DNA of 64,000 nt, from the NCBI GenBank assembly GCA_040877595.1, contig JBBDNM010000062.1:10911-74910 (forward strand), written 5' to 3'. The notes beneath the pieces are model-generated. The model made no database searches. It had not been told where the DNA came from and saw nothing but the letters and a program-made list of their open reading frames with translations. Shown one piece after another: positions 16,473-62,777 of the stretch (its first letter is position 1; the number at the start of each line of letters is the position of its first letter). Origin of the DNA: Gemmatimonadales bacterium. GTDB taxonomy: Bacteria > Gemmatimonadota > Gemmatimonadetes > Gemmatimonadales > GWC2-71-9. The translations under genes and the position numbers were made by a program.

Positions 16473-17581
16473 CTGCAACAGCAAGTGCAGCGTACAGGGG
16501 GCAAGGGGCAGGGGGCAGGGGCGCGAGCGGAGCGACCCTGCTCCCTGCCCCCTGCACCCTGCTCCTTGCACTTCTTGTGGGGTGTGGGGACGGGCGGACG
16601 CCTCTCGTCGTCTACTCCCCCCACGGCCGCGATCTGTTGTCCTTGTTCGAGGAACGCTTCGAGGCCGCGCACCCCGACATTGACCTCCGCTACCTCGACA
16701 TGGGCTCGCAGGATGCCCTCGATCGTGTGCGCACCGAGCGTGCCAACCCCCAAGCCGATGTCTGGTTCGGCGGGCCCTCGGCGTTGTTCGCGCGGGCGGC
16801 GGCGGAATCCTTGCTGACGGCCTATCGGCCGAGCTGGGCGGACCACATTGCCCCGCATGGGTGGGGAGCGGGCGACCTCTTCTTCGCCGCGTACGAGACG
16901 CCGGGCGTGATCTATTACAACGCCGCCGCGCTCCGACATCCCGACAGCGCGGACGATGGCCGCCGAGCGGCGCCGTCCGATTGGGATGACGTCCTCACGC
17001 CCGCGTGGCACGACCAGGTGCTGATTCGTGATCCGATCGCGTCCGGCACCATGCGCGCGATCTTCGGCATGATCATCCAGCGCGGGCTGCGGGAGACCGG
17101 CGACACCGCCTGGGGATTCCATTGGTTGCGCCGGCTGGATGCCAACACGCGCGAGTACGCGCTCAATCCCTCGCTGCTCGACCAGAAACTCATTCGCCAG
17201 GAGGGCCTGGTCTCGCTGTGGGACCTGCCCGACGTGCTGATCGCGCAGGGTACCGGAGCGCCGGTGGGGTTCGTGCTCCCCACGAGCGGCGCGCCGGTCA
17301 TCGTGGACGGCATCGCCATCGTGCGCGGCAGCGATCACTCGGAGGCGGCCCAGCGGTTTGTCGAGTGGGTCGGAACGGTTGCGGCCCAGTTGATGGCGGC
17401 GCGTGCGGTCTACCGCCTGCCGGCCCGTCTCGATCTGCCGGCGGACTCGGTGCCCGACTGGTACATTGCCGTGCGCACGCAGATGGTGGTGGCCGAGATG
17501 GACTGGGAGCAGCTCGCGGATCGCGGCAACGACTGGATGCAATGGTGGGACCGTCACGTCCGCAACAAGGGCGCCCCGTGA
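16469..17581 (+). CDS. ABC transporter substrate-binding lipoprotein, Fe(III)/thiamine-type (AfuA/FbpA-like)
   Basis: Lipobox LLALLVG|C, followed by a PBP2-like sequence (PLVVYSPHGRDLL..DVWFGGP..). The ATG at 16469 overlaps the upstream stop (ATGA). No other ATG, GTG or TTG lies between it and the lipobox. Residues ~9-30 are therefore encoded by the heptamer element. Confidence 0.8.
   Translation: MTATASAAYRGQGAGGRGASGATLLPAPCTLLLALLVGCGDGRTPLVVYSPHGRDLLSLFEERFEAAHPDIDLRYLDMGSQDALDRVRTERANPQADVWFGGPSALFARAAAESLLTAYRPSWADHIAPHGWGAGDLFFAAYETPGVIYYNAAALRHPDSADDGRRAAPSDWDDVLTPAWHDQVLIRDPIASGTMRAIFGMIIQRGLRETGDTAWGFHWLRRLDANTREYALNPSLLDQKLIRQEGLVSLWDLPDVLIAQGTGAPVGFVLPTSGAPVIVDGIAIVRGSDHSEAAQRFVEWVGTVAAQLMAARAVYRLPARLDLPADSVPDWYIAVRTQMVVAEMDWEQLADRGNDWMQWWDRHVRNKGAP
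16485..16571. repeat. Heptamer-unit inverted-arm element (G-rich arm gcagggg-type x5, 14-nt loop, C-rich arm x5); the G-arm is a canonical G4 motif
   Basis: Left arm is gtgcagc gtacagg gggcaag gggcagg gggcagg gg (16485-16521). Loop is cgcgagcggagcga. Right arm is ccctgct ccctgcc ccctgca ccctgct ccttgca c (16536-16571). The arms are imperfect reverse complements. 16497-16521 reads GGGGGcaaGGGGcaGGGGGcaGGGG. Confidence 0.8.
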
Positions 17582-18588
17582 CCGCGCCGTTCCTGCAGGT
17601 CGAAGGGCTGAGCAAGCGCTTCGGCGACCATCAGGCGGTCGCCGATCTTTCGTTTACGCTCGCGCGCGGTGCCATGCTCGCATTGCTCGGGCCCAGTGGC
17701 AGCGGCAAGACCACCACGCTCCGCATGCTGGCAGGCTTCGAGCAACTCGACGCGGGGCGCATCCTGGTCGAAGGCCGCGACGTGACGCCGCTCGGGCCGG
17801 CCGCTCGGCGGTTCGGCATGGTCTTTCAGCACTACGCGCTGTTTCCCCACTTGTCGGTGTTCGAGAACGTGGCGTTTGGCTTGTCCAAGGACGCCGATCG
17901 CGCGTCGCGCGTAGCCGAGGTGCTGCGTCTGGTGGACCTCGCCGGGTTCGAGTCGCGCAGCATCGGGCAACTGTCCGGCGGTCAGCAGCAACGCGTGGCA
18001 CTGGCGAGAGCCTTGGCGCCGGAACCGCGCCTCCTGTTTCTGGACGAACCCCTGTCCAACCTGGATCCCTCCTTACGCGAACGCACCCGCGCCGAGCTGC
18101 GCGCCGCGCTCAAGCAGATCGGGATCACCACGATCCTGGTAACCCACGAACAGGAAGAAGCGTTCGCGCTGGGCGATCTGGTCGCCGTGCTCAAGGACGG
18201 TCGTCTCCAGCAACTCGGCACGCCGACGGAGCTGTACGAACATCCGCAGAACCAGTTTGTGGCCACGTTCGTCGGCCGGGCCAGTGCACTTCCCGGCACG
18301 ATCACCGCCCCTGGGCGGGTGCGGGTGGGTGATGTGGACTGGCCGACCGCCGGCTCGGCGACCGGTGCGGTCACGACGGTGGTGCGACCGGAAGATGTGG
18401 TGTTCACCGACTCGGGCCTGCCCGGGACCGTCGTCGAGCGGCGGTATTTGGGCGGGCGCGCGCTCTTTCGCGTGTCCACCGCGGCGGGGACGCTCGAGAT
18501 CGAGGCCCCCATGGCGTCCGCCGAGTTGGAAGCGAAGGTGCACGTCACCGCCCGCCGATCCCTATCGTTCAACCGGGACAGCGTGTGA
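17578..18588 (+). CDS. ABC transporter ATP-binding protein (FbpC/PotA-like)
   Basis: Walker A GPSGSGKTT, signature LSGGQQQRVALARAL, Walker B LLFLDEP. The GTG at 17578 overlaps the upstream stop (GTGA). The upstream 152 codons of track ORF 17122 are rejected. Confidence 0.9.
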   Translation: MTAPFLQVEGLSKRFGDHQAVADLSFTLARGAMLALLGPSGSGKTTTLRMLAGFEQLDAGRILVEGRDVTPLGPAARRFGMVFQHYALFPHLSVFENVAFGLSKDADRASRVAEVLRLVDLAGFESRSIGQLSGGQQQRVALARALAPEPRLLFLDEPLSNLDPSLRERTRAELRAALKQIGITTILVTHEQEEAFALGDLVAVLKDGRLQQLGTPTELYEHPQNQFVATFVGRASALPGTITAPGRVRVGDVDWPTAGSATGAVTTVVRPEDVVFTDSGLPGTVVERRYLGGRALFRVSTAAGTLEIEAPMASAELEAKVHVTARRSLSFNRDSV

Positions 18589-20216
18589 AGCGTCCCTGGG
18601 GCGTACTGCTCGCCCTCCTGCTCACGTGGCTGGTGGTCTACCCGATAGGACTCATACTGATCGAGGCCTTCCGGGCGGATGGCGCGTGGTCGCTCGTCAA
18701 CCTGCGCGAGTTTGCCGAGCATCGGGAAGAGTGGGGCGCGCTGTGGAATACGCTGTGGATTTCGTTTGCGAGTGTGGCCTTGGCAGGGGTGATCGGCATA
18801 CCGGTCGCCTTTGTCTTTGAGCGCTTGGACTTTCCCGGTCGCCGCATGCTTGGCGCACTCGTGGCCCTGCCCGCCGTGTTGCCCCCGCTGGTCGGGGTGC
18901 TGGCGTTCATGTTCCTGTACGGCGAGAGCGGGTTCGTAGCACGCAGCGTGCAGGTGGTGTTGGGGCTCGCCAATGCACCGTGGCGCTTGCAGGGGGCCGG
19001 GGCCATTCTGCTGGTCCATGCGTATTCCATGTATGTGTATTTCTACTTGTTCACGCGGGCGGGGTTGGCTCGGCTCGATGCATCCATGCTCGAAGCCGCG
19101 CAGTCCCTGGGCGCCGGCCGGTGGGAGACGCTGCGGCGGGTAACGCTGCCGCTGCTCCGTCCCCAGATCGCGGCGGCGGCCTTGCTGGTGTTCATGACGT
19201 CACTCGGTTCCTTCAGCGCGCCGTACATCTTCGGCGGCGGCTTCCGCGTGATGACCACGCAAATTGTCTCCACCAAGCTCAACGGCAACGACGGACTCGC
19301 GATGGTGCAGACCGCCATGCTGGCCATCGTCGCCCTGGTGGGACTCTGGTTGCTGGAACGTGGGCGCGGCGCTCGCAACGTCGCCGTGCTCCAGAAAGGT
19401 GCGGCGCCTGACGCGCACGCGATTCGCGCGCCGCTCGCGCGATGGGGTGCCACCGGGCTCGGTTGGGCCTTCGCGCTCTTCCTGCTGCTGCCGCATCTCA
19501 CGTTGCTGGTGGTCTCGCTGGTGCCGCGCGGCACGTGGACCACCGAGCTGATTCCTCCGGCCTGGACCCTCGGCAACTACGCGGCGCTGCTGGCCGATCC
19601 CGAACGGTTGCGGCCGATGGTCAACTCGCTCTGGATGGCTGCCGTCGCGACGGTGGGCGTGGTGCTGTTGACGTTAGGGGCCGGTCGTATGGTGGTGCAA
19701 CGCAAAGCGCGGTTGGGTCGGGCCATCGAGGCGCTCACCAACGTGCCCTGGGCGGTGCCGGGCACCGTGCTCGCCATCGCGGTCGCCACCACGTTCAGCG
19801 TGCACGCCCCGTGGGTGGGACGGGTGGTGTTGATCGGGACGCTCGCGATCTTGCCGCTGGCGTATTTGATCCGGAACCTGCCGATTGCGGCCGGCTCCAT
19901 CCTGGCCGGCTTCCGTCAGCTCGATCCCGCGCTGGATGAAGCGGCGGCGTCGCTGGGCGCGGGACGCGCGCGCACGATGTGGCGGGTTACGGTCCCCCTG
20001 CTGCGGCCCGCGATTCTGGCCGGAGCGGCCCTGGCATTTGCCACCGCACTCGGCGACTTCGTCACGTCCATCGTGCTCTACACGTATCACACCCGGCCGA
20101 TCTCGATCGAGATTCTCTCGGTACTGCGAGGCTATGACGTCGGCCAGGCTGCCGCGTACGGCGTGGTGCTGATGCTGATCTCCGCCGGCGCCATGCTGAT
20201 TGGCACTCGGCGATGA
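18585..20216 (+). CDS. ABC transporter permease, duplicated two-domain type (FbpB/ThiP-like)
   Basis: 543 aa, hydrophobic, with two internal permease repeats. The second carries ..AASLGAGRARTMWRVTVPLLRPAI... GTGA overlap with the ATPase gene. Confidence 0.88.
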   Translation: MKRPWGVLLALLLTWLVVYPIGLILIEAFRADGAWSLVNLREFAEHREEWGALWNTLWISFASVALAGVIGIPVAFVFERLDFPGRRMLGALVALPAVLPPLVGVLAFMFLYGESGFVARSVQVVLGLANAPWRLQGAGAILLVHAYSMYVYFYLFTRAGLARLDASMLEAAQSLGAGRWETLRRVTLPLLRPQIAAAALLVFMTSLGSFSAPYIFGGGFRVMTTQIVSTKLNGNDGLAMVQTAMLAIVALVGLWLLERGRGARNVAVLQKGAAPDAHAIRAPLARWGATGLGWAFALFLLLPHLTLLVVSLVPRGTWTTELIPPAWTLGNYAALLADPERLRPMVNSLWMAAVATVGVVLLTLGAGRMVVQRKARLGRAIEALTNVPWAVPGTVLAIAVATTFSVHAPWVGRVVLIGTLAILPLAYLIRNLPIAAGSILAGFRQLDPALDEAAASLGAGRARTMWRVTVPLLRPAILAGAALAFATALGDFVTSIVLYTYHTRPISIEILSVLRGYDVGQAAAYGVVLMLISAGAMLIGTRR

Positions 20217-21400
20217 ATCCGTCGGTCAAGAAGCTGTCCGTCCTGATCGGCATCGCGTTCGTGGACATGATCGGGTTCGCGATGATCTTCCCGCTGCTGC
20301 CGTTTTACGCGCTGCGGCTGGAGGCCAGTCCCGCGACTATCGGCTGGATGATCGCGAGTTTCTCGATTGCGCAGATGGCCTCCTCGCCGCTGTGGGGCCG
20401 CGTGTCGGACCGTTTTGGCCGTCGGCCGGCGCTCATGGTGGGCCTGTTGGGCTCGTCCATCGGGTTTCTCGTGTTTGGATTCGCGACCTCCATCTGGATG
20501 TTGTTCCTCTCCCGCATCATTCAGGGTGCGGGCGGCGGCACCACGGGTGTAGCGCAGGCGTACATCGGGGACGCCGTCGAACCCAGGGAGCGCGCCAAGG
20601 CGCTGGGCTGGTTGTCGGCGGCGACGTCGGCAGGGGTCATGATCGGCCCGGCACTCGGATCGCTTGCGGCTAACCTGGGTCCCGAAGCGCCGGGCATCCT
20701 CGCCGCGGCCTTGTGTGCCATCAATCTCGGGTTTGCGTGGCGGTGGCTGCCCGAGACCAACGTGCGGAAGCCGCGCACGTCCACGGACGGACCCGAGCCG
20801 ATCATGCGCTCCGTCCGTACCGTCATGGCCGAGGTCGTGCTCAAGCCGGCGAACGACATCTCGAAGCTCATCTGGATCTACGCCACCGGCATGCTGGGCT
20901 TCATGTCCATGACGGCGGTGTTTGCGCTGTTCCTGGGAGCCGAGTTCGGGATTACGGAGCGTACCATCGGGTACTTCTTCGTGTATAACGGATTGGTGGG
21001 GGTGGTGATGCGGGCGGTACTGCTCGGGCCGCTGGTGGATCGGTTTGGCGAGGTCCGTCTCATGCGGGCGGGCGCGCTTATCATGACCTTGGGCCTGCTG
21101 CTCCTCCCGCTGACCCAGAGTGTCTGGATGGTTGCGGCGGTGATGGGACTGGTGCCTGTGGGTACGGCGCTGCTGTTTCCGGCGACCTCGGCGCTGGTGA
21201 CGCATCGCGCTCCCGCTCATGAGCGCGGCCAGGTACTGGGCGTGCAACAAACGTTCGGCGGTGTAGCCCGGGTGTTTGCCCCCATCTGGGCAACGTACGT
21301 CTTTCAGATCGGGACGCGCTTGCCGTTTCTGGTTGCGGCGGGGGTCGTGGCGGGGGTCGGGATACTGACGTTGCGCGTCAGGAGTACGGAGTCCGGGTAA
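20213..21400 (+). CDS. MFS transporter
   Basis: 395 aa with about 12 hydrophobic segments. MFS motif GRVSDRFGRRPALM. ATGA overlap with the permease stop. Confidence 0.88.
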   Translation: MNPSVKKLSVLIGIAFVDMIGFAMIFPLLPFYALRLEASPATIGWMIASFSIAQMASSPLWGRVSDRFGRRPALMVGLLGSSIGFLVFGFATSIWMLFLSRIIQGAGGGTTGVAQAYIGDAVEPRERAKALGWLSAATSAGVMIGPALGSLAANLGPEAPGILAAALCAINLGFAWRWLPETNVRKPRTSTDGPEPIMRSVRTVMAEVVLKPANDISKLIWIYATGMLGFMSMTAVFALFLGAEFGITERTIGYFFVYNGLVGVVMRAVLLGPLVDRFGEVRLMRAGALIMTLGLLLLPLTQSVWMVAAVMGLVPVGTALLFPATSALVTHRAPAHERGQVLGVQQTFGGVARVFAPIWATYVFQIGTRLPFLVAAGVVAGVGILTLRVRSTESG

Positions 21401-21454
21401 GGGTGCAAAAAGGTGCAAAGGCGCAAAGGTGCAAAGGTGCAAGGGTGCAAGGGG
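21401..21454. repeat. Direct octamer array (ggtgcaaa-type, ~6 units) filling a convergent intergenic gap
   Basis: gggtgcaaaaa ggtgcaaa ggcgcaaa ggtgcaaa ggtgcaag ggtgcaag gggg lies exactly between the MFS stop (21398-21400) and the amidohydrolase stop (21458-21460). No inverted partner arm was seen. Confidence 0.8.
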
Positions 21455-21457
21455 ACG

Positions 21458-23110
21458 CTACCGCCGGTAGACCACGTGTCCGCCGAGCACCGTCATGACA
21501 ACCTCCGTATCCAGTACCGCGCGCTCATCCACCGTCATGATGTCCTGACTCAAGACCACAAAATCCGCATACTTGCCCGCCGTCAACGATCCCGACTCGT
21601 TCTCCATGAACGCCGCATACGCCGGCCACAGCGTCATCGAGAGCAGCGCCTCCATGCGCGTCGTACGCTCGGCCGGGAACCAGCCGCCGGCCGGCCAGCC
21701 GTTGTTGTCCATGCGCGTAAAGAAGGCGCGGAACGAGATCAACGGGTTCACCTGCTCGACCGGAAAGTCTGAGCCGTTGGGAATCACGACACCGGTGTTG
21801 AGCAGGGACCGCCACACGTAGGCGCCCTGGCTGCGGTTCCAGCCGATGCGGTTCGGCACCCACGCCATGTCGCTGGTCTGGTGCGAGCCCTGCATGGAGG
21901 GAATCACGTCGAGCTGGGCAAAGCGCGGGATGTCCTGGCGGTGCAGGTTCTGCGCGTGTTCCACTCGGAACCGGTGATCGCCACGGGGTGCCTGGCCAAG
22001 CGCCCATTCAAAGGCGTCGAGGGCCATGCGATTGGCGCGGTCGCCGATGGCATGCACGTTGAGCTGGAACCCGCTGCGGAGTGCCTTGACGGCGATGCGG
22101 CGGAGCACAGAATCGGGGAAGGTGATGAGACCGGTGACGCCGGGCTCATCGCTGTACTCCTCGATCATCGCCGCCCCTCGGCTGCCGAGGGCCCCGTCGA
22201 CACTGATCTTGATGGATCGCACCCAGAGGCGGTCGTGGACCGCGAGGCGCGGTCCGCGCTCCATCAACCGGTCGAGTGTCGCTTCGTTGTCCCGCACCAT
22301 CACATAGTTGCGCAAGGGGTAGCGGCCGGTGCGGGCCAGTTCCTCGTAGACCGAGAGGAGCCCTTCGCTCACGCCAGCGTCGTGAATGCCGGTCAGGCCC
22401 CACCGGTTGGCTTCCGCGATGGCCGCGAGTACGGCGGCGCGCGTCTCATCGCCCGACTCACGGGCCATAACCCGGTTCACCAGCGCCATCGCGTTGTCCA
22501 CCAGCACGCCGGTGGCGTCGCCGTCGGCGTCCCGGATGATGCGGCCGCCGCTCGGGTCGGGCGTGTCGCGCGTGATGCCGGCCAGTTCAAGCGCGCGGGC
22601 GTTCACGAACAGCGCGTGCCCATCCACGCGGGTCATGGCTACCGGATGATCGGGTACCGCGCTGGACAGCGATTGATGGGTGGGGAAACGCGTGTCGGCC
22701 CAGAGGTTCTGGTCCCAGCCCCGGCCGCGAATCCAGTCGCCGCTTCGCGTGTCGACGGCCCGGGCCCGTACGCGGGCAATGACGTCGTCCAGCGACCGCG
22801 TGCCCACCAGGTCCACCCGCCGCAGGGCAAGCCCAAGGTTCAGCAGGTGCGCGTGAGCGTCCACCATGCCGGCGATGACGGTCAGGCCGCCCACATCCAT
22901 GCGTTCCGTGCGCGGGCCGGCCATGGCCTCCGCCCCGCGGCGGCTGCCGACAAAGACGATCAGGCCGTCCCGCACGGCCAAGGCTTCCGCCCGTGGCCGG
23001 TTGACGTCCGACGTCCAGATGTTGGCGTTGACCACGATCAAATCGGCGGGTTGCTGGGCCAGCACGGATTGCCCGGCGAGAGCGATGGCAAGCAGGGGGA
23101 TGAGTCGCAT
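21458..23110 (-). CDS. Secreted metal-dependent amidohydrolase (YtcJ/Amidohydro_3-like)
   Basis: Start MRLIPLLAIALAGQSVLAQQ is ATG at complement(23108..23110) and gives a signal peptide. Motifs include ..GMVDAHAHLLNLG.., ..NVHAIGDRAN.., ..RVEHAQ.. and ..GSDFPVE... The 49 upstream codons of the track ORF run through a repeat element and are rejected. Confidence 0.85.
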   Translation of the reverse strand: MRLIPLLAIALAGQSVLAQQPADLIVVNANIWTSDVNRPRAEALAVRDGLIVFVGSRRGAEAMAGPRTERMDVGGLTVIAGMVDAHAHLLNLGLALRRVDLVGTRSLDDVIARVRARAVDTRSGDWIRGRGWDQNLWADTRFPTHQSLSSAVPDHPVAMTRVDGHALFVNARALELAGITRDTPDPSGGRIIRDADGDATGVLVDNAMALVNRVMARESGDETRAAVLAAIAEANRWGLTGIHDAGVSEGLLSVYEELARTGRYPLRNYVMVRDNEATLDRLMERGPRLAVHDRLWVRSIKISVDGALGSRGAAMIEEYSDEPGVTGLITFPDSVLRRIAVKALRSGFQLNVHAIGDRANRMALDAFEWALGQAPRGDHRFRVEHAQNLHRQDIPRFAQLDVIPSMQGSHQTSDMAWVPNRIGWNRSQGAYVWRSLLNTGVVIPNGSDFPVEQVNPLISFRAFFTRMDNNGWPAGGWFPAERTTRMEALLSMTLWPAYAAFMENESGSLTAGKYADFVVLSQDIMTVDERAVLDTEVVMTVLGGHVVYRR

Positions 23111-23122
23111 ACGGAGTAAGAT

Positions 23123-23201
23123 GGCGGGAAGGCGGGAAGTCGGGAAGGCGGGACGGGCGAACCGCCTACTTCCCGCCCTCCCGCCCTTCCGCCTTCCCGC
23201 C
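23123..23201. repeat. Octamer-unit inverted-arm element (ggcgggaa-type); the G-arm is a G4 motif
   Basis: Left arm is ggcgggaa ggcgggaa gtcgggaa ggcgggac gggcg (23123-23159). Right arm is cttcccgccctcccgcccttccgccttcccgcc (23169-23201). The outermost 13 bp pair perfectly and the inner part needs bulges. The element lies between the decarboxylase stop (23166-23168, inside the element) and the amidohydrolase start (23110). Confidence 0.8.
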
Positions 23202-24602
23202 GAGCTCAACGACCACCTCAACCGCCACCGCAATATCCGGCATCTCCGTCCTCGCATTCACGATACATGCCCGTAGGCAGTAGATCCCGTCCACCGTCGT
23301 TCCCGACAGGAATACCCGACCGTCCTTCTGGAGGCGGTCCACCAACTTCTTGTTGATTGCGTCGGCGTGGCCCGAGGTCGGGAGGTAGCGGAAGCACACA
23401 ATAGAAAGGTCGGTCTCACCCACCAGTTCCAGGCGCGGGTGTGCCGCCACCTGACGTCTGAGCTCCGCGGCCATGGCGAGATCGTGGCGCCACAGCTCGT
23501 GGTATCCCTTGAGTCCCATCCGCCGCATGACCGCGTACACCTTGAGCGCGCGGAACGCCCGCGACAGCTGCGGCCCCTGCTGGTGGTACCAGAGCGGGCC
23601 GTTGTACCAGTCGTTGTCTTCCACTTCGAGATAATCGGCCTTGGTGGCGAACGCCTGGGTGAGGGCGTTCCGGTCCTTGACCAGCACCGCGCCCGCCTCA
23701 TAAGGCACGTAGAGCCACTTGTGCGGGTTCATCGTAAGGGAGTCCGCGAGTTCCATGCCGCGGTAGTGGTCGGCCAGTTCGGGCAACGAGCGCAGCGCGG
23801 CACCGTACGCGCCATCAACGTGGAGCCACAGCCCTTCGTCATCACCCACCTTGCGTAGCTCGGCCAGCGGATCAATCGCGCCCGTGTTCACGGTGCCCGC
23901 GGTCCCCACCACGCAGAGGGGCAGGCAACCGTCCGCACGATCCCGAGCAATGGCGGCGCGCAAAGCCTTGATGTCGAACACTCGGCCCCGCATGGGTACG
24001 AGCCGGAGCGAGTCATCGCCCAGGCCCAGCATCTCAACCGCACGGCGAATGGACGAATGCGTTTCGTGCGTCACATAAACCGCGGGCCGGATGCCCAGCT
24101 GGCCAAGTCCGGTCTTCCGGCTGCCGGGCAACAGGCGCTCGCGCATGGCGGCCAGGGCCACGAAATTGGCGGCAGATCCGCCCGAGAGCAGGATGCCGCC
24201 GGCGGACAGCTCGTAGCCGACGAGTTCCGCCAGCCACCGCATCACGCACATCTCCACCCAGGTCGCAATCTGCGCCGAGCCCGCGCAGTTGTTGTTCATG
24301 GTCGCGGCCAGCAGGTCGGCCGCCATGCCCATCGGGGCGGCGCTGCCGCGGATGTAGCCCCACCAGCGCGGATGCCCGATGCCGAGCGAGTAGGGCAGGA
24401 CGTCCCGCTCGAGGTCGGCGAGAATCGTGGCCGCGTCAGTGCCTTCCAGCGGCAGCGGCGCCCGCTCGAACCGGGCAATCACGTCATCGGGTGGTCGCAC
24501 AAACGCGGGGCGGTCCGGCAGGCCGCGCAGGTAGTCGGCAGCCATATGCGAAACGCGGGCCAGCGTCTGTTCAAAATCGTCAGGCGAAAAGTCAGGGTGC
24601 AT
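23166..24602 (-). CDS. Pyridoxal-dependent (group II) amino-acid decarboxylase
   Basis: Diagnostic peptides are ..SGGSAANFVALAA.., ..HVDGAYG.. and ..SLTMNPHKWLYVP.. (PLP-lysine motif). The chosen start MHPDFSPDDF is at complement(24600..24602). The last 11 residues (GGKAEGREGGK) are encoded by the right arm of the repeat element. Confidence 0.85.
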   Translation of the reverse strand: MHPDFSPDDFEQTLARVSHMAADYLRGLPDRPAFVRPPDDVIARFERAPLPLEGTDAATILADLERDVLPYSLGIGHPRWWGYIRGSAAPMGMAADLLAATMNNNCAGSAQIATWVEMCVMRWLAELVGYELSAGGILLSGGSAANFVALAAMRERLLPGSRKTGLGQLGIRPAVYVTHETHSSIRRAVEMLGLGDDSLRLVPMRGRVFDIKALRAAIARDRADGCLPLCVVGTAGTVNTGAIDPLAELRKVGDDEGLWLHVDGAYGAALRSLPELADHYRGMELADSLTMNPHKWLYVPYEAGAVLVKDRNALTQAFATKADYLEVEDNDWYNGPLWYHQQGPQLSRAFRALKVYAVMRRMGLKGYHELWRHDLAMAAELRRQVAAHPRLELVGETDLSIVCFRYLPTSGHADAINKKLVDRLQKDGRVFLSGTTVDGIYCLRACIVNARTEMPDIAVAVEVVVELGGKAEGREGGK

Positions 24603-25512
24603 CGGTGGCGAATGCCTTGGCGAGGAACGCATGGACCGTGTCGCGATACATGGGCCCCGCATCGTCGTAGGTCTCGTTGTGTCCGGCGCCCTCGATAGGC
24701 ACCAGGGTGGCCTGTCGTGCGGCGTCCGCCAGACGCTGCCCCATCCAGAATGGCGCGATCCGGTCTTGCGTTCCGTGCAGGATCAGGACCGGTACGTCCA
24801 CCGACCGCAGACGTTCCAGATTGTCGAGGTCGAGACGCGTCATGATGCGCGGCAGGAACCAGTAGTGCCGCCGCGCCATGTCGCGTGCGTTGGTGAACGG
24901 CGCGTCGAGCACCACCGCCGCCGGTGTGCGGTGCGCGGCAAGCCACGTGGCCGACACGCCGCCGATCGAGCGGCCGTACACCGCGATCCGCATCGCATCC
25001 ACGTCCGGTCGCGCGGCAAGCCAGTCCCATATGGCTTCTGCGTCGCGGTAGACGTCGGCCTCGGTCGGCTTGCCCGGGTTCTCCCCGTAGCCGCGGTAGT
25101 CCACGGCCAGCAGCGCGGCGCCGGGCAGTCGCATCTGGAGCAGCATCGGCGCCATCGCGCCGACGGTTTCCATGATGCCGGTGAACCAGATGACGGCAGG
25201 CGCAGGGCGGGAGGTCGGGCGGGCGGGAGGCAAGAACCATCCGCTGAGCGTGAGTCCGTCGTGGGTACGAATCGCGACCCGTTCGCCGCCCTCCGGGGTA
25301 CCGAGCACATGGCGCGGCGACGGAAACGCGAGCCGGTCCTGCATCAGCCAGGCGACGAACACAATGACCAGGTAACTGACCGCGATGTACGCGGCGATGC
25401 GGAGGGCAATCGTCACGACGGTGAATCTACTGTCCCCGCGTCTCCGCGCCTCCGCGTGAGTATCTTCTCTCGCCATGTCCGACCTTGCCATCAGCTGTCG
25501 CGGTCTCGTCAA
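24592..25512 (-). CDS. Membrane-anchored alpha/beta hydrolase
   Basis: N-terminal TM segment VVTIALRIAAYIAVSYLVIVFVAWLM, nucleophile elbow GRSIGG, then ..ILHGTQDRI.. and ..GAGHNE... The start is uncertain: 25512, 25491 or 25476. The last shares a CATG with the divergent ABC gene start. Confidence 0.75.
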   Translation of the reverse strand: MTRPRQLMARSDMAREDTHAEARRRGDSRFTVVTIALRIAAYIAVSYLVIVFVAWLMQDRLAFPSPRHVLGTPEGGERVAIRTHDGLTLSGWFLPPARPTSRPAPAVIWFTGIMETVGAMAPMLLQMRLPGAALLAVDYRGYGENPGKPTEADVYRDAEAIWDWLAARPDVDAMRIAVYGRSIGGVSATWLAAHRTPAAVVLDAPFTNARDMARRHYWFLPRIMTRLDLDNLERLRSVDVPVLILHGTQDRIAPFWMGQRLADAARQATLVPIEGAGHNETYDDAGPMYRDTVHAFLAKAFATDAP

Positions 25513-26404
25513 GCGCTATCCGCCCGACGTGATCGCCCTGGACGGCCTCGATCTCGAGGTCCGTCGCGGCGAATGCTTCGGCCTGCTTGGTCCGAACGGT
25601 GCGGGGAAGACCACGACGGTCGAGATCCTGCAGGGCCTGACCGCGCGCGATGCGGGTGCGGTGGAAGTGCTGGGCCAGACCTGGGAACGCAACGGCCATG
25701 CGCTTCGTGAGCGCTTGGGCACCGCCCTCCAGGAAACCAGGTTCCCCGACAAGCTGACCGTCATCGAGGTGCTGCGCCTCTTCCGGAGCTTCTATAAGGA
25801 AGGTACGGACATCGACAGGGCGTTGGCACAGGTGAATCTGCAGGAAAAGCGCAACGCGCGCGTCACCCAGCTCTCGGGCGGGCAGCATCAGCGGCTGGCG
25901 GTGGCCACCGCGCTCGTGGCGGATCCGGAGCTGCTGTTCCTGGATGAGCCCACCGCCGGTCTCGACCCGCAGGCTCGGCGCGGCTTGTGGGACATCATCC
26001 TCGACCTGCGTTCCCGTGGCCGCACGGTCCTGCTGACCACGCACTATATGGATGAAGCGGAACGCCTCTGCGATCGCGTCGCCATCGTGGATCACGGCAA
26101 GGTGATTGCGCTGGGGACGCCGCGCGAACTCATCGCGGGTCTGGGCGCCGAGCACGTGGTGGAGTTCGCGGTCGAAGACGGCATGCCGTCGGTGGCCGAC
26201 CTCGAACCCCTGCCGGGGGTACGGGCCGTCCGCGCCGAGACCAGCGCGATGCGGCTGACCGTGACCCGCGTCCATGAAGCCGTGCCGGCCCTGATGGGCC
26301 TGTTGCGCGACCGCGAACTCACGCTGAGCCAGCTCGCCACGCATCACGCCACGCTCGAAGACGTGTTCCTGCAGCTGACCGGTCGGAGCCTGCGCGATGG
26401 CTGA
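25475..26404 (+). CDS. ABC-2 type transporter ATP-binding protein
   Basis: Walker A GPNGAGKTT, signature LSGGQHQRLAVATAL, Walker B LLFLDEPT. Confidence 0.9.
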   Translation: MSDLAISCRGLVKRYPPDVIALDGLDLEVRRGECFGLLGPNGAGKTTTVEILQGLTARDAGAVEVLGQTWERNGHALRERLGTALQETRFPDKLTVIEVLRLFRSFYKEGTDIDRALAQVNLQEKRNARVTQLSGGQHQRLAVATALVADPELLFLDEPTAGLDPQARRGLWDIILDLRSRGRTVLLTTHYMDEAERLCDRVAIVDHGKVIALGTPRELIAGLGAEHVVEFAVEDGMPSVADLEPLPGVRAVRAETSAMRLTVTRVHEAVPALMGLLRDRELTLSQLATHHATLEDVFLQLTGRSLRDG

Positions 26405-27440
26405 GCGACACGGCGGCCCGCTGGTCCAGCTCACGCTGTGGCGCGTGCGGGAGCTCCTGCGCGAGCCGGAGGCGGTGTTCTGGGTGTTCGCGTTCCCGGT
26501 GCTCCTTGCGCTGGCGCTTGGGCTCGCGTTCAAGAACCGTGGGCCCCAGGCCATCACGGTGGGCGTCGTCGAGGGTACGGCCGACTGGGTGGAGGTCGAG
26601 CGCGTGCTGGGCGAAGCCGACGGCATCCGCGCTGAAGCGTTGTCGGCCGGCGAGGGCGCCCGCCGCCTGCGCACGGGTCGCATTGCGCTGCTCGTGACAC
26701 CGGGAGAACCGATCACGTTCACGTTCGACGAAACCCGCGAAGAGAGCGGGCTCGCGCGCATGCTGGTGAACAACGCCTTGCAGGAGGCCGGTGGGCGGCA
26801 TGATGTCCGCGAGGTGCGCGAAGTGCGCGTGACCGAAAAGGGCTCGCGCTACATTGATTTCCTGATCCCGGGCCTGCTGGGTCTCAACATCATGGGCACG
26901 GGGCTCTGGGGCATCGGGTTCGGGTTGGTGCGCACACGGAAGAACGGCCTGCTCAAGCGGCTCCTGGCGTCGCCGATGCCCAAGAGTCAATTGTTATTGT
27001 CGCAGATTCTCGCGCGGCTCGTCTTCCTGGTGCTGGAAGTGGCCGCGGTCGTACTGTTTGGCATCTTCGTTTTTGGCGTGCCGTTTCGCGGCGGACTGAT
27101 CGCGTTCCTGGCGGTGGTATTCATCGGGGCGACGGCGTTCTCAGGCCTGGGCTTGCTGGTGGCGGCGCGGGCGCGCACCATTGAAGGCGTCTCCGGCCTG
27201 ATGAATTTGGTGATGGTCCCGATGTGGATCTTCTCGGGGGTGTTCTTTGCCTGGGCGAACTTTCCGGACGCCATGCACCTGTACATTCAGATGTTGCCGC
27301 TCACGGCGTTGAACGACGCCTTACGCGCGGTCATGCTGGATGGCACGGGACTGGGGGGTATACTGGGGTGGTTAGGGATCCTCGCAGCCTGGGGCGTCGC
27401 GAGCTTCGCGGTCGCGCTACGGCTGTTCCGCTGGAGCTAG
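26397..27440 (+). CDS. ABC-2 type transporter permease
   Basis: 347 aa with a large N-terminal loop followed by about 6 hydrophobic helices. 8-nt overlap with the ATPase gene. Confidence 0.85.
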   Translation: MAERHGGPLVQLTLWRVRELLREPEAVFWVFAFPVLLALALGLAFKNRGPQAITVGVVEGTADWVEVERVLGEADGIRAEALSAGEGARRLRTGRIALLVTPGEPITFTFDETREESGLARMLVNNALQEAGGRHDVREVREVRVTEKGSRYIDFLIPGLLGLNIMGTGLWGIGFGLVRTRKNGLLKRLLASPMPKSQLLLSQILARLVFLVLEVAAVVLFGIFVFGVPFRGGLIAFLAVVFIGATAFSGLGLLVAARARTIEGVSGLMNLVMVPMWIFSGVFFAWANFPDAMHLYIQMLPLTALNDALRAVMLDGTGLGGILGWLGILAAWGVASFAVALRLFRWS

Positions 27441-27449
27441 GAGGCCGAG

Positions 27450-27821
27450 ATGGCGGGTTTGAAGCTGTCGTCCAAGGCGCAGAAAGCGATGGACACGTTG
27501 CAGCTCGTGCGCCGCAAGGTTGAACGAGTCCACTCGCTGGTCGAACAGTACTGCTCCGCCAGGTCCGCTCAGGACTCCATGGCGCAATCGTTGAGCCGCG
27601 CCGCCGCGGACGTCGGTCGCCTGCTCATGAACAACGGCCTGGGCGTGATGGCCGACTCGGCCAATCAGGTCGCCATGGGTGCCAAGCGCGGTGGGCACAC
27701 CCAAGCCAAGTACCGCCAGTTGCGCGAACTGGTTGGCGGCCTTCGGGTCGCCATCGATCGGGCGGAGAAGAATGTGCTGGACGCGGAGAGGCAGCATGAA
27801 CACGATGAGGCCGGACACTGA
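27450..27821 (+). CDS. Hypothetical helical protein (123 aa)
   Basis: Strong SD (aggagg) 6-7 nt upstream of the ATG, 9 nt after the permease stop. Non-repetitive, charged, helix-prone sequence. No family recognised. Confidence 0.6.
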   Translation: MAGLKLSSKAQKAMDTLQLVRRKVERVHSLVEQYCSARSAQDSMAQSLSRAAADVGRLLMNNGLGVMADSANQVAMGAKRGGHTQAKYRQLRELVGGLRVAIDRAEKNVLDAERQHEHDEAGH

Positions 27822-27861
27822 TGGCAAGGGTGTTTCACGCTAACCAACGGAAAGGCAGACC

Positions 27862-28326
27862 ATGCGTACGCTGATTACGGCAGGACTCCTCGGCGCGGCC
27901 CTGACGGCGGCGCCCACACTCACCGCGCAGGACCCCGGCGCGCGGCCCACGTACGGCGAGGTGCGGCTGGAGGGGGGCTTCCTGCCGGATCCGCACCGCA
28001 TGGAACTCACGGCCGGCGGCTCGATCCAGGTGAGCGTAAGCGGCTGTGCCTACGGGTTCGTAGCCAACGCACCCGACGTCAAGATGTACTATAGTGGCAA
28101 TGCCAAGCGCACGCTCCACTTCTACTCCACGTCCGATGACGACACGACGCTGCTGATCAACCTGCCGGATGGGTCGTGGGTCTGCAACGACGACGGCCTG
28201 GGGAACCGGAACCCGCTCGTGACGATCCCGAACGCCGCGTCCGGCCGCTACGATATCTGGGTGGGTACGTACGGGTCGACCATGGTGCGGGCGACGCTCA
28301 ACATCTCGGAAATCACGCCGCGCTGA
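27862..28326 (+). CDS. Secreted protein with pre-peptidase-C-terminal-like beta-sandwich domain
   Basis: Signal peptide MRTLITAGLLGAALTAAPTLTAQD. The body ..GFLPDPHRMELTAGG..C.GF....PDV..Y......L.F....DDDTTLLINLPDGSWVCNDDG..NPLV......GRYDIWVGTYG resembles a Cys-pair 'DTTL..PDG.W.C.DD' domain seen appended to secreted peptidases. That match is from memory and was not searched. Confidence 0.65.
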   Translation: MRTLITAGLLGAALTAAPTLTAQDPGARPTYGEVRLEGGFLPDPHRMELTAGGSIQVSVSGCAYGFVANAPDVKMYYSGNAKRTLHFYSTSDDDTTLLINLPDGSWVCNDDGLGNRNPLVTIPNAASGRYDIWVGTYGSTMVRATLNISEITPR

Positions 28327-28347
28327 CGGGGCACCGCCTCGTCTTGT

Positions 28348-28382
28348 GACGCGCGGGAGGGCCTGGGGTTCTCCCGCGCGTC
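28348..28382. terminator. Perfect 12-bp GC-rich hairpin between convergent genes (possible bidirectional terminator, no U-tract)
   Basis: gacgcgcgggag (28348-28359), 11-nt loop, ctcccgcgcgtc (28371-28382). It sits between stops at 28326 (+) and 28389 (-). Confidence 0.5.
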
Positions 28383-28388
28383 GTGCGT

Positions 28389-29370: not shown

Positions 29371-29424
29371 ATTGTGAAATCAGTAACAAACTATTAAAGT
29401 CGTTGTCTGACAAGGACTTGCAGG

Positions 29425-58040: not shown

Positions 58041-58787
58041 TCATCCGAAAGTTCGCTCGATCAAGATAGCCGAGCCCATGACGAGAAGGAAAACGGCAAA
58101 CGCCCGCTTCAGTCGGGCGGCCGGGACATGCCGCGCGAGGCGACTCCCAGCCAGCACGCCCAGAATCGCGACGGCCGAAAAGCCCGCCAGAAAGGTCCAG
58201 CGCACCTCAACCTGATCGAGGTAGCCCGCAAACCCCGCAAACGATTTGAGGGCGATGACAAAAAGGGATGTCCCGATGGCATCTTTCATGGGGACCCGCG
58301 CGAACAGCACCAGCGCAGGTACGATCAGGAACCCGCCGCCGACGCCCACCAACCCCGTCAACACGCCAACGACCAGGCCCTCGATCGCAATCAGCGCCAT
58401 GCCGCCACGCCGCGTGCCGGGAATGGCGTCCATGGATCGGTCGCGCAACATCGCGACCGCCATCGCCAGCATGACCACGGCAAACAGCACCAGTTGGACG
58501 GTGCCGGTGACCAGGGTGGCGAGCCGCGCGCCGAGGAAGGTGCCGACCATCGCGACGAGCGCGAAGGGGACCGCCACGCGCCACACCACATGGCCCTGAC
58601 GCCAGTGGCTGATGGTGCCCACGGCGGCGGTGGTACCCACCACGGCGAGCGACATGGCGATGGCTGGTTTCGGGGCCATGCCGAGGATGTAGACGAAAAT
58701 CGGAACGGTCAGGATGGATCCGCCACCGCCCAGCAGACCCAGACTCGCCCCGATCAGGGCGGCGAGCGCAAGCCCAAGCAGTATCAC
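58041..58787 (-). CDS. TauE/SafE family sulfite/anion exporter
   Basis: 248 aa with ~8 TM helices, ..GGGSILTVP.. and ..GVGGGFLIVPAL... The GTG start overlaps the upstream stop (GTGA). Confidence 0.82.
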   Translation of the reverse strand: MILLGLALAALIGASLGLLGGGGSILTVPIFVYILGMAPKPAIAMSLAVVGTTAAVGTISHWRQGHVVWRVAVPFALVAMVGTFLGARLATLVTGTVQLVLFAVVMLAMAVAMLRDRSMDAIPGTRRGGMALIAIEGLVVGVLTGLVGVGGGFLIVPALVLFARVPMKDAIGTSLFVIALKSFAGFAGYLDQVEVRWTFLAGFSAVAILGVLAGSRLARHVPAARLKRAFAVFLLVMGSAILIERTFG

Positions 58788-59548
58788 GAGGCGTCGGTCA
58801 GGAACACACAGCCCGGATGCCCGGTGAAACCCTTGCGGTCAAAATCCGGCCATTCGTAGCACACGCCCGGCTTGGCATTGGAGCCGTCGGGGCGTTTCCG
58901 GTCGTGCAACACGCAGGTGACCTTGTCGTCCGGGGTCAGGTAGTCGCAGGCCGAGATGACCTCGCACTCCATGGAACGATCATCCACTCGCTCCACCTTG
59001 CAGAGGTAGGGTGACTTGCGGCTGCGGAGCAGGTCTTCGTCGTGGGTCTTGTCGGCGGGCAGGATGATGTCGAGCGTGAGGTCTCGACAACAGGCGGCTC
59101 CGCGGGTGTTGTCGGCGGTGCGGCACGGGGCTCCGACACACGGATTGGTCCCGAGGGTCGGAAGGGCTCGCGTGCGCGTGGGCGCCAGGGCGAGCGTGCG
59201 CATGCGCCCTCTGTGAAAGACGGTGTGGCGGCCATCCGGATGCCTTCTTGTCGCGTCCTCCCCATGGGGCACGGATCTCGGTAACGACCCGATATGCCCG
59301 TGCACCTTGCACCGTGCACCTTGCACGTTCTTCTCAAGATGCTTGCACGGCACCCGTACCACCGCCTCCACCAGCACCTCGCCCCCCGCCCGATACGGTT
59401 TCCCGAAGCTGATGCGCTCCGTGTGGCCGAGCAGCCAGGTCCCGAGGTCGTTCTGGGTCTCGGCGCTGTCGCTGGTGTCGGCGATATACAGGGTGAGGTG
59501 GAGTTCCTGGCAGTATCGGCCAAGGCGGGTACAGGCGGGGGCGGGCAT
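58784..59548 (-). CDS. Cysteine-rich protein, C-terminal half YkgJ/CxxCxxCC-like (putative Zn/Fe-binding)
   Basis: 254 aa with 17 Cys. ..NPCVGAPCRTADNTRGAACC.. and ..CVLHDRKRPDGSNAKPGVCYEWP.. resemble the cysteine-cluster family. Assignment is tentative. The gene contains a 14-mer x2 repeat at 59299-59326. Confidence 0.55.
   Translation of the reverse strand: MPAPACTRLGRYCQELHLTLYIADTSDSAETQNDLGTWLLGHTERISFGKPYRAGGEVLVEAVVRVPCKHLEKNVQGARCKVHGHIGSLPRSVPHGEDATRRHPDGRHTVFHRGRMRTLALAPTRTRALPTLGTNPCVGAPCRTADNTRGAACCRDLTLDIILPADKTHDEDLLRSRKSPYLCKVERVDDRSMECEVISACDYLTPDDKVTCVLHDRKRPDGSNAKPGVCYEWPDFDRKGFTGHPGCVFLTDAS
59299..59326. repeat. cgtgcac/cttgcac heptamer alternation (14-mer x2) inside the Cys-rich CDS
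   Basis: cgtgcac cttgcac cgtgcac cttgcac. On the minus strand it reads gtgcaag gtgcacg x2 and is translated as VQGARCKVHG. The unit is related to the gtgcaag-type units at 16.5 kb and 21.4 kb. Confidence 0.7.
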
Positions 59549-60122: not shown

Positions 60123-60130
60123 CGAGAGCT

Positions 60131-60222
60131 GGGAGATGGGAGACGGGAGACGGAACACAGCCGCCATCTCCCGTCTCCTATCTCCCGTCTCCCGTCTCTC
60201 GTCTCCCGTCTCCCGTCTCTCG
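60131..60222. repeat. GGGAGAC heptamer element: 3-unit left arm, 10-nt loop, 8-unit right arm (asymmetric hairpin + direct array)
   Basis: gggagatgggagacgggagacgg (60131-60153) pairs with ccatctcccgtctcctatctccc (60164-60186) with 2 mismatches in 23 bp. Five more gtctc(c/t)c units run to 60222 and end exactly at ATG 60223. It uses the same unit as the array at 36897-36962. Confidence 0.88.
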
Positions 60223-61626: not shown

Positions 61627-62309
61627 CGTGGTGGCAGCGGCTGACCCGCCGTCGCGGGAGTCTGGCGTGGGATGGCGTCGTGCGGGGCACGCTGGTGCTC
61701 GCCATCATCGGGATCGTCGTGTTGTTGCTGGGATCAGACGACGCGGGTGGACTGGTGGGCTTTACGATTGTGACGGTGTGGGTGAATGGCCCCATCGGGA
61801 TGTTCCTGCCCGCCACGTACGAACCCATCCTGATGCTGTTCGGTACGCTGTACCCAGCGGTGCTGATTGCCTCGTTTGGCATTGCCGGTACGCTGTACAT
61901 CGAAGGCCTCAACTACTACCTCTACCAACGTTTGCTGCACACGCGGGCGATGCGTCCCGCGCGCGACAACGCCCTCGTGCGGCGCCTCACGCGCATGTTT
62001 ACCCGCGCGCCGTTCTTCACGATCTGGATGTGCAGCTGGTCGCCGTTGCCCTACTGGGCGGTGCGCATCATGGCGCCGCTCGCCAACTATTCCGTTCCGC
62101 GCTACCTGTTCGCGACATTCCTGGGGCGTTTTCCGCGACTGTGGTTCTTTGCGTGGCTCGGCCCAGCCCTCAATCTCTCCACGCGGACGCTTGCGATTGT
62201 GACGGGGGCCTCGATACTTCTGTTTACCTCGATATTTCTCCTCAAGGGAAGGAGAGACGTGGAGCAAACACACGTGGAGCAAACACACGTGGAGCGCTCC
62301 AAGCGCTAG
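61623..62309 (+). CDS. VTT-domain (DedA/TVP38-like) membrane protein
   Basis: The GTG at 61623 overlaps the upstream stop (GTGA). Polytopic, with ..SPLPYWAVRIMAPLANYSVPRYLFATFLGRFPRLWFFAWLG... The C-terminal RRDVEQTHVEQTHVERSKR is encoded by the left inverted repeat. Confidence 0.65.
   Translation: MTWWQRLTRRRGSLAWDGVVRGTLVLAIIGIVVLLLGSDDAGGLVGFTIVTVWVNGPIGMFLPATYEPILMLFGTLYPAVLIASFGIAGTLYIEGLNYYLYQRLLHTRAMRPARDNALVRRLTRMFTRAPFFTIWMCSWSPLPYWAVRIMAPLANYSVPRYLFATFLGRFPRLWFFAWLGPALNLSTRTLAIVTGASILLFTSIFLLKGRRDVEQTHVEQTHVERSKR
62244..62297. repeat. Left inverted repeat (15-mer acgtggagcaaacac x2.6) of the element carrying the four-helix-bundle gene
   Basis: 62256-62282 gacgtggagcaaacacacgtggagcaa is the exact reverse complement of 62743-62769. 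Flanking similarity (aaggga..gg..gacg and cgt(g/t)gagcgc) extends the match to ~50 bp. Confidence 0.9.
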
Positions 62310-62371
62310 TTCAGCCCTCAGGTGCGCGATTCTGGTTAACGGCGGGATCGCCGGCCGCGTTATGGTCCGTG

Positions 62372-62728
62372 ATGCACCCCTTCGAGCGACTGGAAGCCTG
62401 GCAACTCAGTCATCGCCAGACCATCCGCGTCTACAAGCTTACGAGATCGTTTCCGGCTGACGAACGCTTTGGCCTGACGAACCAGCTACGACGGTCCGCG
62501 GCTTCGGTGTCGGCGAACATCGCGGAAGGCAGCGTCGCCTCCTCAAAGAAGGAGTTTCTGCGCTACCTCGGGATCGCGAAGAAATCTCTGAATGAGGTGG
62601 CCCACTGGTATATCCTGGCTCGGGATATTGAGTACATCACCTACGAGGTGTGGAGGGACCTGAACAACCTGAACCACCGGGTGGGCAAAGTCATCTGGGC
62701 TCTCCACAACCACTTGGGTGGTTCGTAG
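62372..62728 (+). CDS. Four-helix-bundle protein (23S rRNA intervening-sequence protein / DGR Avd family; TIGR02436/PF05635-like)
   Basis: MHPFERLEAWQLSHRQTIRVYKLTRSFPADERFGLTNQLRRSAASVSANIAEGSVASSKKEFLRYLGIAKKSLNEV..W..LARDIEYI matches the family hallmark (F..L.vWQ.a..l...iY.lt..FP.eE.ygLtsQlrRAa.Si..NIAEG......kef..fl.iA.gSl.E). The upstream 248 codons of track ORF 61628 are rejected. Confidence 0.9.
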   Translation: MHPFERLEAWQLSHRQTIRVYKLTRSFPADERFGLTNQLRRSAASVSANIAEGSVASSKKEFLRYLGIAKKSLNEVAHWYILARDIEYITYEVWRDLNNLNHRVGKVIWALHNHLGGS

Positions 62729-62777
62729 CGCTCAACGTCTTCTTGCTCCACGTGTGTTTGCTCCACGTCCCTCCCTT
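62728..62777. repeat. Right inverted repeat of the four-helix-bundle element
   Basis: gcgctcaacgtcttcttgctccacgtgtgtttgctccacgtccctccctt starts at the last base of the stop codon (62726-62728). Confidence 0.9.

Follow-up and report, generated by a model that had tools for sequence, protein, structure and literature searches.

Can short tandem repeats that differ in sequence from one place to the next, and that lie at one gene boundary after another, belong to a single kind of element? The question is raised by a 64-kb stretch of the genome of a soil bacterium of the Gemmatimonadales (hereafter the window; about 67% G+C), for which an original prediction had listed eight G-rich/C-rich repeat loci sharing one architecture but using different unit sequences. 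Each of the eight loci could be confirmed, its position matching the one given either exactly or to within a few bases. We favor, with a probability of roughly 60%, the reading that they form one structural class, namely heptamer-array stem-loops that resemble the intervening sequences (IVSs) of rRNA, are prone to slippage, and mark or process transcript ends. The arrays are non-random, occur throughout the Gemmatimonadales, favor intergenic 3' ends, have a G-rich-first polarity, change by whole units, recur at orthologous junctions and are associated with a cassette that carries an S23p/IVP gene.

The best relatives of the window's proteins are found in Gemmatimonadales metagenome-assembled genomes (MAGs), with up to 73% identity for the amidohydrolase orthologue. 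The same-species comparison set, found by exact-protein look-up, consisted of the NCBI MAGs GCA_040899675.1 and GCA_040881015.1 and two Logan assemblies, which are 99.7-100% identical to the window. Comparison loci and contigs are labeled with L-numbers (for example L014, L070 and L081). Genes were called using a codon log-odds model trained on Pfam-confirmed genes; a caller based only on the G+C content of third codon positions was dropped, as it chose antisense frames. Independent assemblies contain five of the loci (1, 3, 4, 5 and 8) together with the greater part of loci 2 and 7, which are therefore not assembly artefacts; short-read contigs tend to break within the arrays. Rfam and tRNA scans of the window returned no match, and in particular no rRNA.

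Tandem arrays were called in the window with Tandem Repeats Finder (TRF; period, copies and score), and arrays of period 6-9 were compared with those of 100 dinucleotide shuffles of the window. We counted 15 such arrays against 1.7 +/- 1.3 per shuffle; seven scored at least 45 (0.01 per shuffle) and six had a reverse-complement partner (0.03 per shuffle). By form, the eight loci comprise four compact hairpins, three one-armed arrays and one inverted pair of 15-mer arrays around an open reading frame (ORF). Loci 1 to 7 are head-to-tail repeats of a 5-11-nt unit in at least three copies, as in heptanucleotide simple repeats (3.3 to 10.4 copies, period 7 or 8), and locus 8 has a period of 15. Each of the four hairpins consists of a unit array, a loop of 7-17 nt and the reverse-complement array, and the helices, including that of the locus 8 arms, are near-perfect over 25-56 bp. 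RNA folding, one of the checks proposed with the original prediction, gave -47 to -80 kcal/mol for the four hairpins (z-scores of -5.7 to -7.3) and weak structures for the one-armed arrays. As had been claimed, the architecture is conserved and the sequence is not. The eight loci use seven different units, GGGAGAC being common to loci 5 and 7.

Position and polarity across the Gemmatimonadales

The same architecture, built from other units (GGAACGC, GGAGCAC, GGATGGAA, GGGAGCC, GATTGCG and GGCATTC), was found across the lineage in a survey of 1.12 Mb from 80 other Gemmatimonadales genomes. In this sample, 56 of 67 strong arrays (about 84%) are intergenic, against 13% of random positions (p = 5e-39). 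Furthermore, the type of junction matters: arrays are carried by 15% of convergent junctions (27/175), 5% of co-directional junctions (30/607) and 1.8% of divergent junctions (3/167), with an odds ratio of 10 between convergent and divergent junctions (p = 4e-6). This distribution fits elements that belong after genes, not at promoters. A consensus scan of positions 14000-33900 found no U-tract terminator-like match at a gene end, and none of the four window hairpins is directly followed by the T-run of an intrinsic terminator.

All well-formed hairpins without an ORF start with an arm that is rich in G and poor in C and finish with a C-rich one, a polarity that goes beyond the original prediction. 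A generic hairpin detector using 12-nt stems proved too noisy for the polarity test, and only stems of at least 20 nt were kept; among the ORF-less ones, the G-rich arm came first in 14 cases and second in none, with one neutral case (p = 1e-4). As the element is palindromic, the same order is read from either strand, and in both arms the G-rich strand is directed inward. Non-periodic intergenic hairpins of these genomes are purine-first too, by about 2 to 1, and the one-armed arrays exhibited no sense-strand bias (8 vs 10). We see two candidate causes of the polarity: a pyrimidine-rich 3' arm may provide a weak RNA:DNA hybrid instead of a U-tract, or the order of the arms may keep a free C-rich arm from serving Rho loading.

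Other forms were observed in the comparison loci. A compound element in L030 (751-899) is composed of a CTCGGCG array, eight CCGATGA units and an array complementary to the CTCGGCG array. Elements of about 170 nt, with CGCGAAT-type 9-mer arms around a core of about 100 nt, lie in L059 (3175-3345 and 7790-7965) and L063 (4850-5045). One genome has two diverged copies and another has one, which gives these elements the look of a dispersed family; they may stand midway between the cassettes and the compact hairpins.

The eight loci, their neighboring genes and their unit numbers

The claim that every locus sits on a start or stop codon stands insofar as the elements fill gene-to-gene spacers, but locus 6 lies inside an ORF. 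Locus 1 is a hairpin of degenerate heptamers (CAGGGGG/CAAGGGG, GCAGGGG type) at 16478-16578, whose 47-nt arms (16478-16524 and 16532-16578) are 79% complementary and fold at -79.8 kcal/mol (z = -6.0). It sits in the 5' coding region of a solute-binding lipoprotein gene, which independent gene calls give as 370 aa and whose ATG (16469) overlaps the upstream TGA. As predicted, the hairpin encodes the signal peptide of this lipoprotein, its C-rich arm supplying the Leu/Pro-rich h-region before the LVGC lipobox. More generally, the G-rich arms contain no stop codons, and the C/T-rich arms encode Leu, Pro, Ser and Phe.

Locus 2 (21401-21454, plus strand) is a one-armed array of about five GGTGCAAA units (period 8, 5.2 copies, score 70) that occupies the 57-nt spacer of the convergent MFS transporter and amidohydrolase genes; the short-read contigs L083 and L084 terminate within it. 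In many Gemmatimonadales the amidohydrolase gene is followed by a conserved non-coding block, a hairpin (gaagcccccgg...ccgggggcttc) and then ggctacccggagtcgggggcttgc, that covers the first ~120 nt past the stop codon in L002, L004, L005, L007, L010-L012, L015 and L017 and has no Rfam match. This block is missing from the window, where the GGTGCAAA array stands in its place.

Locus 3 is a hairpin of the 8-mer GGCGGGAA at 23123-23201 (arms 23123-23153 and 23171-23201, 87% complementary; -70.6 kcal/mol, z = -5.7), which separates two minus-strand genes, those of the decarboxylase and the amidohydrolase. Since the decarboxylase stop codon (23166-23168) lies between the arms, the last 11 codons of the gene are array sequence, and the orthologues end (...VEL*) at the point where the window array starts. 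Locus 4, a near-perfect hairpin of the heptamer GGTGTAA/GGGTGTA at 35986-36053 (25-nt arms, 96% complementary; -47 to -48 kcal/mol on both strands, z about -7.2), fills the spacer of the convergent AcrB-type (stop at 35991) and nitrilase (stop at 36061) genes. Locus 5 (36890-36962, minus strand) is a one-armed array carrying 10.4 copies of GGGAGAC on the sense strand (score 132) where the globin and nitrilase genes meet. Within it, the TGA of globin and the GTG of nitrilase overlap (GTGA), and the array encodes the GRRETGD repeats of the globin C-terminal tail.

Locus 6 (59298-59326, minus strand) is a short one-armed array, four copies of GGTGCAA/GGTGCAC, located about 235 nt into an ORF rich in Cys (58784-59548), where coding potential is low. 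Locus 7, a GGGAGAC hairpin at 60123-60222 with a left arm of ~3.5 units (60123-60160) and a right arm of ~8 units (60164-60222; -59.9 kcal/mol, z = -6.6), is exactly the 100-nt spacer from the cupredoxin stop codon (60122) to the phosphodiesterase ATG (60223). The left arm of locus 8, whose cassette is described below, encodes the VTT protein tail ...DVEQTHVEQTHVERSKR* (VEQTH repeats). The array-encoded C-terminal tails foreseen for the decarboxylase, globin and VTT proteins are thus real. We infer that these coding overlaps, tails and signal peptide alike, are tolerated by-products.

Comparison of nearly identical strains revealed how the arrays change. Over 23.4 kb, the window and L081, which belong to the same species, differ by one substitution and one indel, and this sole indel in L081 is 14 nt long, exactly two units of the locus 5 array. 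A 7-nt difference from L085 was also observed in the right arm of locus 7, close to the end of that contig. The first of two processes offered for the original prediction, local building of unit arrays, is therefore supported by unit slippage between near-identical strains. Since 7 is not a multiple of 3, the number of units sets the reading frame, and a change in that number can fuse or uncouple neighboring genes. Indeed, globin and nitrilase form a single 448-aa ORF in L081 (13490-14836), which has two fewer units, and are separate in the window; the unit number at locus 5 works like a phase-variation-type frame switch.

The proposed comparison of orthologous spacers uncovered presence/absence among relatives in addition to this unit-number polymorphism. 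At the decarboxylase-amidohydrolase junction, four of five syntenic genomes carry a hairpin with diverged units (GGCGGGAA, GAGCACA/GAGCACG and GGGAGCC). Some of these units are only two positions apart, suggesting that the element is old and that its unit drifts in concert. Likewise, at the junction of the PIG-L and solute-binding protein genes, the window and L014 both have hairpins, made of different units, that encode the signal peptide. This recurrence at orthologous junctions of different genera supports the other process that had been offered, selection on a structure.

Weaker arrays, absent from the original prediction, were observed at 25204-25230, 28782-28810 and 39180-39205. The AGGGCGGG array (25204-25230, in a hydrolase gene) and the GGCGGAAA array lie within coding regions, and the divergent kinase/FHA spacer contains a G-rich stretch of CGAGAGGGT. 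Positions 1-287 of L082, a contig of the same species, fail to match 24850-25137 of the window, with a breakpoint 67 nt from the weak AGGGCGGG array; the mismatch could reflect a chimeric contig or a rearrangement. The minus strand at 3-11498 holds a giant ORF, exceeding 3,830 codons, that runs off the window and whose Pfam matches are confined to a few bacterial Ig-like domains.

An S23p/IVP gene between inverted arrays

Locus 8 differs from the other seven in enclosing an ORF whose identity had not been recognized in the original prediction. Its left, G-rich arm (62243-62298, plus strand) contains 2.6 copies of the 15-mer ACGTGGAGCAAACAC with 100% matches, and its right, C-rich arm (62727-62782, plus strand) is the reverse complement of this array. 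The two form a 56-nt inverted pair, 86% complementary and including a 24-nt stretch of 100%, with 428 nt between the arms. There lies a gene (62369-62728, plus strand) for an S23p/IVP four-helix-bundle protein, which matches PF05635, TIGR02436 (113 bits) and the structure of XCC0516 (PDB 2gsc, E = 2e-17), with a weak match to Avd; the PADLOC defence models gave no match to it. We know of no biochemical activity of IVP proteins. The cassette is located between the VTT gene and an epimerase gene, and it alone among the eight loci places a PF05635 ORF within long-stem inverted repeats, the arrangement of an S23p-type IVS.

The arms and the ORF appear as a unit in relatives. In L171 and L172, whose IVP proteins are 85% and 72% identical to that of the window, the cassette is found at the corresponding site and carries four copies of diverged 15-17-mers, and the Gemmatimonas homologue in L070 is flanked by 150-nt inverted arms made of three 59-nt tandem units. 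We also surveyed 80 metagenomic loci encoding homologues at 38-52% identity, at G+C contents from 0.41 to 0.67, of which 63 were testable. An inverted repeat flanks the IVP ORF in 41 of the 63 (65%), in diverse taxa, compared to 2 of 150 shifted control positions (1.3%; p = 3e-25). The arms have a period of 7 or 14 in 37 of these 41 cassettes, lie about 30 nt from either end of the ORF and begin with the G-rich arm by 35 to 5. Mismatches per unit rise as IVP identity falls, from 0.4 above 75% to 1.5 at 60-75% and ~3.2 below 50% (Spearman -0.51). Unit similarity thus tracks protein similarity, indicating that the arms and the ORF descend together. The pooled units contain no universal motif, their information content being no better than that of shuffled units.

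Xanthomonas has an XCC0516-type gene between accB and accC, with arrays of the GGGAATC type on one flank and the complementary arrays on the opposite flank. The IVP gene thereby sits within an essential operon (L167 1380-1920; L179 9929-10372), and the downstream arm runs directly into the accC ATG without a Shine-Dalgarno sequence. The groES-groEL spacer of Xanthomonas (L179 2295-2450) holds an ORF-less inverted heptamer pair of the GGGATTC type; its unit is a one-substitution variant of the cassette unit and lies within the same 20 kb as the IVP gene. A further IVP cassette, with AGCTNTT arms, was observed in L177 (9961-10410) between DUF58 and batA of a moxR-bat operon.

We tentatively entertain the view that S23p/IVP proteins and heptamer-array stem-loops make up one widespread two-component system, of which the ORF-less hairpins would be partners or derivatives. 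A functional tie of IVP to the arrays is plausible but unproven. A more specific version casts the protein as a dedicated array partner, comparable to RAYT with its REPINs, that binds, maintains or propagates non-autonomous hairpins elsewhere in the genome, which would then not have evolved locally. The enclosure of the gene by inverted arrays and their co-divergence speak for such a partnership, as do the identity of the Xanthomonas cassette unit with the dispersed unit of its genome (PMC4692102), an ORF-less hairpin in L140 that has the cassette's unit and lies 1 kb from the cassette, and the homology of IVP with Avd, a nucleic-acid-binding factor of diversity-generating retroelements (PMC10053308; a weak match here). 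Furthermore, we counted a single IVP gene in 1.1 Mb of DNA from Gemmatimonadales, but some 30 array pairs with a period of 7-9. However, the ORF-less hairpins of the window have units unrelated to the cassette 15-mer, target-site duplications were not found, and an array with the same unit lies within 1.5 kb of only 2 of 37 metagenomic cassettes, in what is an underpowered test. The site of the cassette, moreover, is the same in relatives at 72-85% protein identity and is fixed at accB-accC in Xanthomonas; such constancy points to vertical descent, not recent mobility. For a protein to which we can assign no activity, we regard this role as doubtful.

Structural class, rival explanations and known systems

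If the loci are one class of IVS-like stem-loops at transcript ends, as we favor, their arrays would lengthen and shorten through replication slippage, and the complementarity of their arms would be kept by selection on the helix, possibly with arm-to-arm templated correction. Once transcribed, the near-perfect RNA helix of 25-47 bp could act by analogy with the 23S rRNA IVS stem, as an RNase III substrate and as a 3'-end hairpin that ends or segments transcripts. The Coxiella IVS provides an experimental precedent that supports such a role. It contains an S23p ORF, a 28-bp terminal stem and, in the region of the 5' arm, tandem GACAGAT heptamers whose number varies among strains (PMC4990558); cleavage by RNase III at the first repeat and excision were demonstrated (PMC4990558). 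As in the IVSs of Coxiella and Leptospira, terminal inverted repeats in the window form a long stem around a PF05635 ORF; unlike them, the window elements lie between protein-coding genes instead of in helix 25 or 45 of 23S rRNA, and seven of the eight loci have no ORF.

Several observations weigh against this reading. The three one-armed loci among the eight fold weakly, and their function cannot therefore lie in a helix. Hairpins are absent from the orthologous junctions of L017 (decarboxylase-amidohydrolase) and L016 (PIG-L-solute-binding protein) and are therefore dispensable. The scarcity of arrays at divergent promoters could be due to nothing more than purifying selection against insertion there, and for the G-rich-first polarity we have only the candidate causes named above. 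We deduce a role as RNase III substrate or terminator solely from how the elements are built and placed, and the gene calls in the related loci come from our own codon model. Finally, the ORF-less hairpins do not share the unit of this genome's IVP cassette, unlike those of Xanthomonas.

The arrays might alternatively be neutral by-products of slippage that accumulate where selection is weak, hairpins arising through occasional fold-back copying. Whole-unit length polymorphism, presence/absence among genera, the variety of units and the absence of strand bias relative to genes among one-armed arrays would all be expected in that case, and heptanucleotide repeats are over-represented in many bacteria, as related in PMC4679880. 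Neutral slippage does not, however, predict the strict G-rich-first polarity, the 10-fold per-junction excess of convergent over divergent junctions, the recurrence of hairpins at the same junction in four of five syntenic genomes against a co-directional baseline of about 5%, or the mirroring of unit variants in near-perfect stems. We therefore consider it unlikely.

Far less probable is that the elements act via a G-quadruplex (G4) or i-motif of their G-rich and C-rich arms, a structural alternative suggested by the original prediction. The observation that several G-rich arms satisfy the G4 rule (G3+N1-7 x4) is correct for loci 1, 3 and 5, and half of the window's 12 G4 motifs fall in arrays; GGGAATC oligonucleotides also form G4 in vitro, and G4 was proposed for the repeats of Xanthomonas and Nostoc (PMC4692102). 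However, the other five loci fail the rule, many units of related genomes and IVP cassettes (GAGCACA, GATTGCG, GTTGATA and AGGTATT) cannot form G4, and in a hairpin the G-rich arm is paired to its complementary arm at -47 to -80 kcal/mol. G4 as a general explanation is thus largely refuted. Finally, the idea that the inverted arrays are assembly artefacts of a MAG can be set aside, as NCBI and Logan assemblies made independently from separate runs contain identical hairpins and the architecture recurs in scores of MAGs (megabase-scale contigs included) and in finished Xanthomonas genomes, even if short-read contigs often break inside arrays.

Repetitive extragenic palindromic (REP) sequences and bacterial interspersed mosaic elements (BIMEs) comprise one sequence family per genome, REPIN-RAYT systems are mobilized by a Y1 transposase, and REPs have roles in mRNA 3'-end protection and weak termination. 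The window elements are similarly extragenic hairpins after genes, convergent or co-transcribed, and the associated gene is similarly flanked by repeats; in contrast, they have no shared sequence, their arms are internally periodic, and the gene encodes a four-helix bundle without known catalytic activity. No single dispersed palindromic sequence exists among the loci, GGGAGAC at two of them aside. No transposase was found among the window genes scanned with Pfam, a scan that covered part of them. No flanking direct repeat longer than 4 nt and no near-identical copies, the marks of transposable elements of the miniature inverted-repeat kind (MITEs), were detected in the window either. The predicted dissimilarity from REP/BIME and MITE families is thus borne out, and we rejected mobile elements as the main explanation of the compact hairpins, as they have neither a shared sequence nor target-site duplications.

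The elements resemble previously described heptamer repeats more closely. Cyanobacterial short tandemly repeated repetitive (STRR) heptamers were reportedly described by Mazel et al. in 1990. Among the long simple-sequence repeats of bacteria, heptanucleotides are the most common (Mrazek et al. 2007, as cited in PMC4679880). The window arrays share with both the tandem heptamers, an excess over expectation, a non-coding bias and slippage-type variation; those descriptions cover direct arrays, whereas we observed a mirror arm, a polarity and a link to a gene family. The TAACTGA repeats of marine Beggiatoaceae and cyanobacteria are also intergenic heptamer arrays that end a few bases from start codons and in some cases reach back into the last part of the upstream gene, but they use a single unit per genome and are almost exclusively direct, with one indirect repeat among 170 sets (PMC4679880).

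The closest precedent was reported by Rehm et al. (2015), who found G-rich tandem heptamers, GGGAATC in Xanthomonas and GGGGAYT in Nostoc, over-represented in non-coding DNA (PMC4692102). Each Xanthomonas genome has about 190 GGGAATC arrays, including 70-75 convergent (G-rich-first) inverted pairs; the repeats favor aligned ORFs, are rare between divergent ORFs, lie near start and stop codons, and vary in number among relatives (PMC4692102). Their paired convergent stem-loop arrays and their preference for aligned or convergent over divergent spacers are also found here. In contrast, there is one consensus unit per genome there, and here units are nearly locus-specific, with periods of 7, 8, 9 and 15. 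Related MAGs add further different units, so no single consensus exists. PMC4692102 does not mention the S23p gene XCC0516. The suggestion that the window elements represent an undescribed class therefore does not hold, as the convergent GGGAATC pairs of Xanthomonas (PMC4692102) and the heptamer stem of the Coxiella IVS (PMC4990558) had already been reported. The elements are of a partly described kind; what is new is the phylum, the locus-specific units and the clear tie to an S23p cassette. In the literature searched, which leaves most subscription journals outside, we found no report of such repeats in Gemmatimonadota and no link of S23p to dispersed heptamer arrays.

These arrays have practical consequences, as they break short-read assemblies and create both false N-terminal extensions and real C-terminal tails. 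Beyond this, intergenic hairpins, the S23p/IVP gene and the stems of rRNA IVSs are three puzzles that share a design and may be one. Knowledge of heptanucleotide repeats goes back to 1990 for cyanobacteria and to 2007 for bacteria at large, and the origin of rRNA intervening sequences has been a question since the early 1990s. Thousands of proteins make up the orphan PF05635 family, for which a structure has been solved. If the tentative two-component reading is true, it would explain the excess of heptanucleotides in bacterial genomes (GGGAATC in Xanthomonas and STRR in cyanobacteria, for example), how rRNA IVSs originated, the function of a very large orphan family, and the elements of this window. 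Our results place heptanucleotide repeats, PF05635 and rRNA IVSs in one architecture that is testable in tractable organisms such as Xanthomonas.

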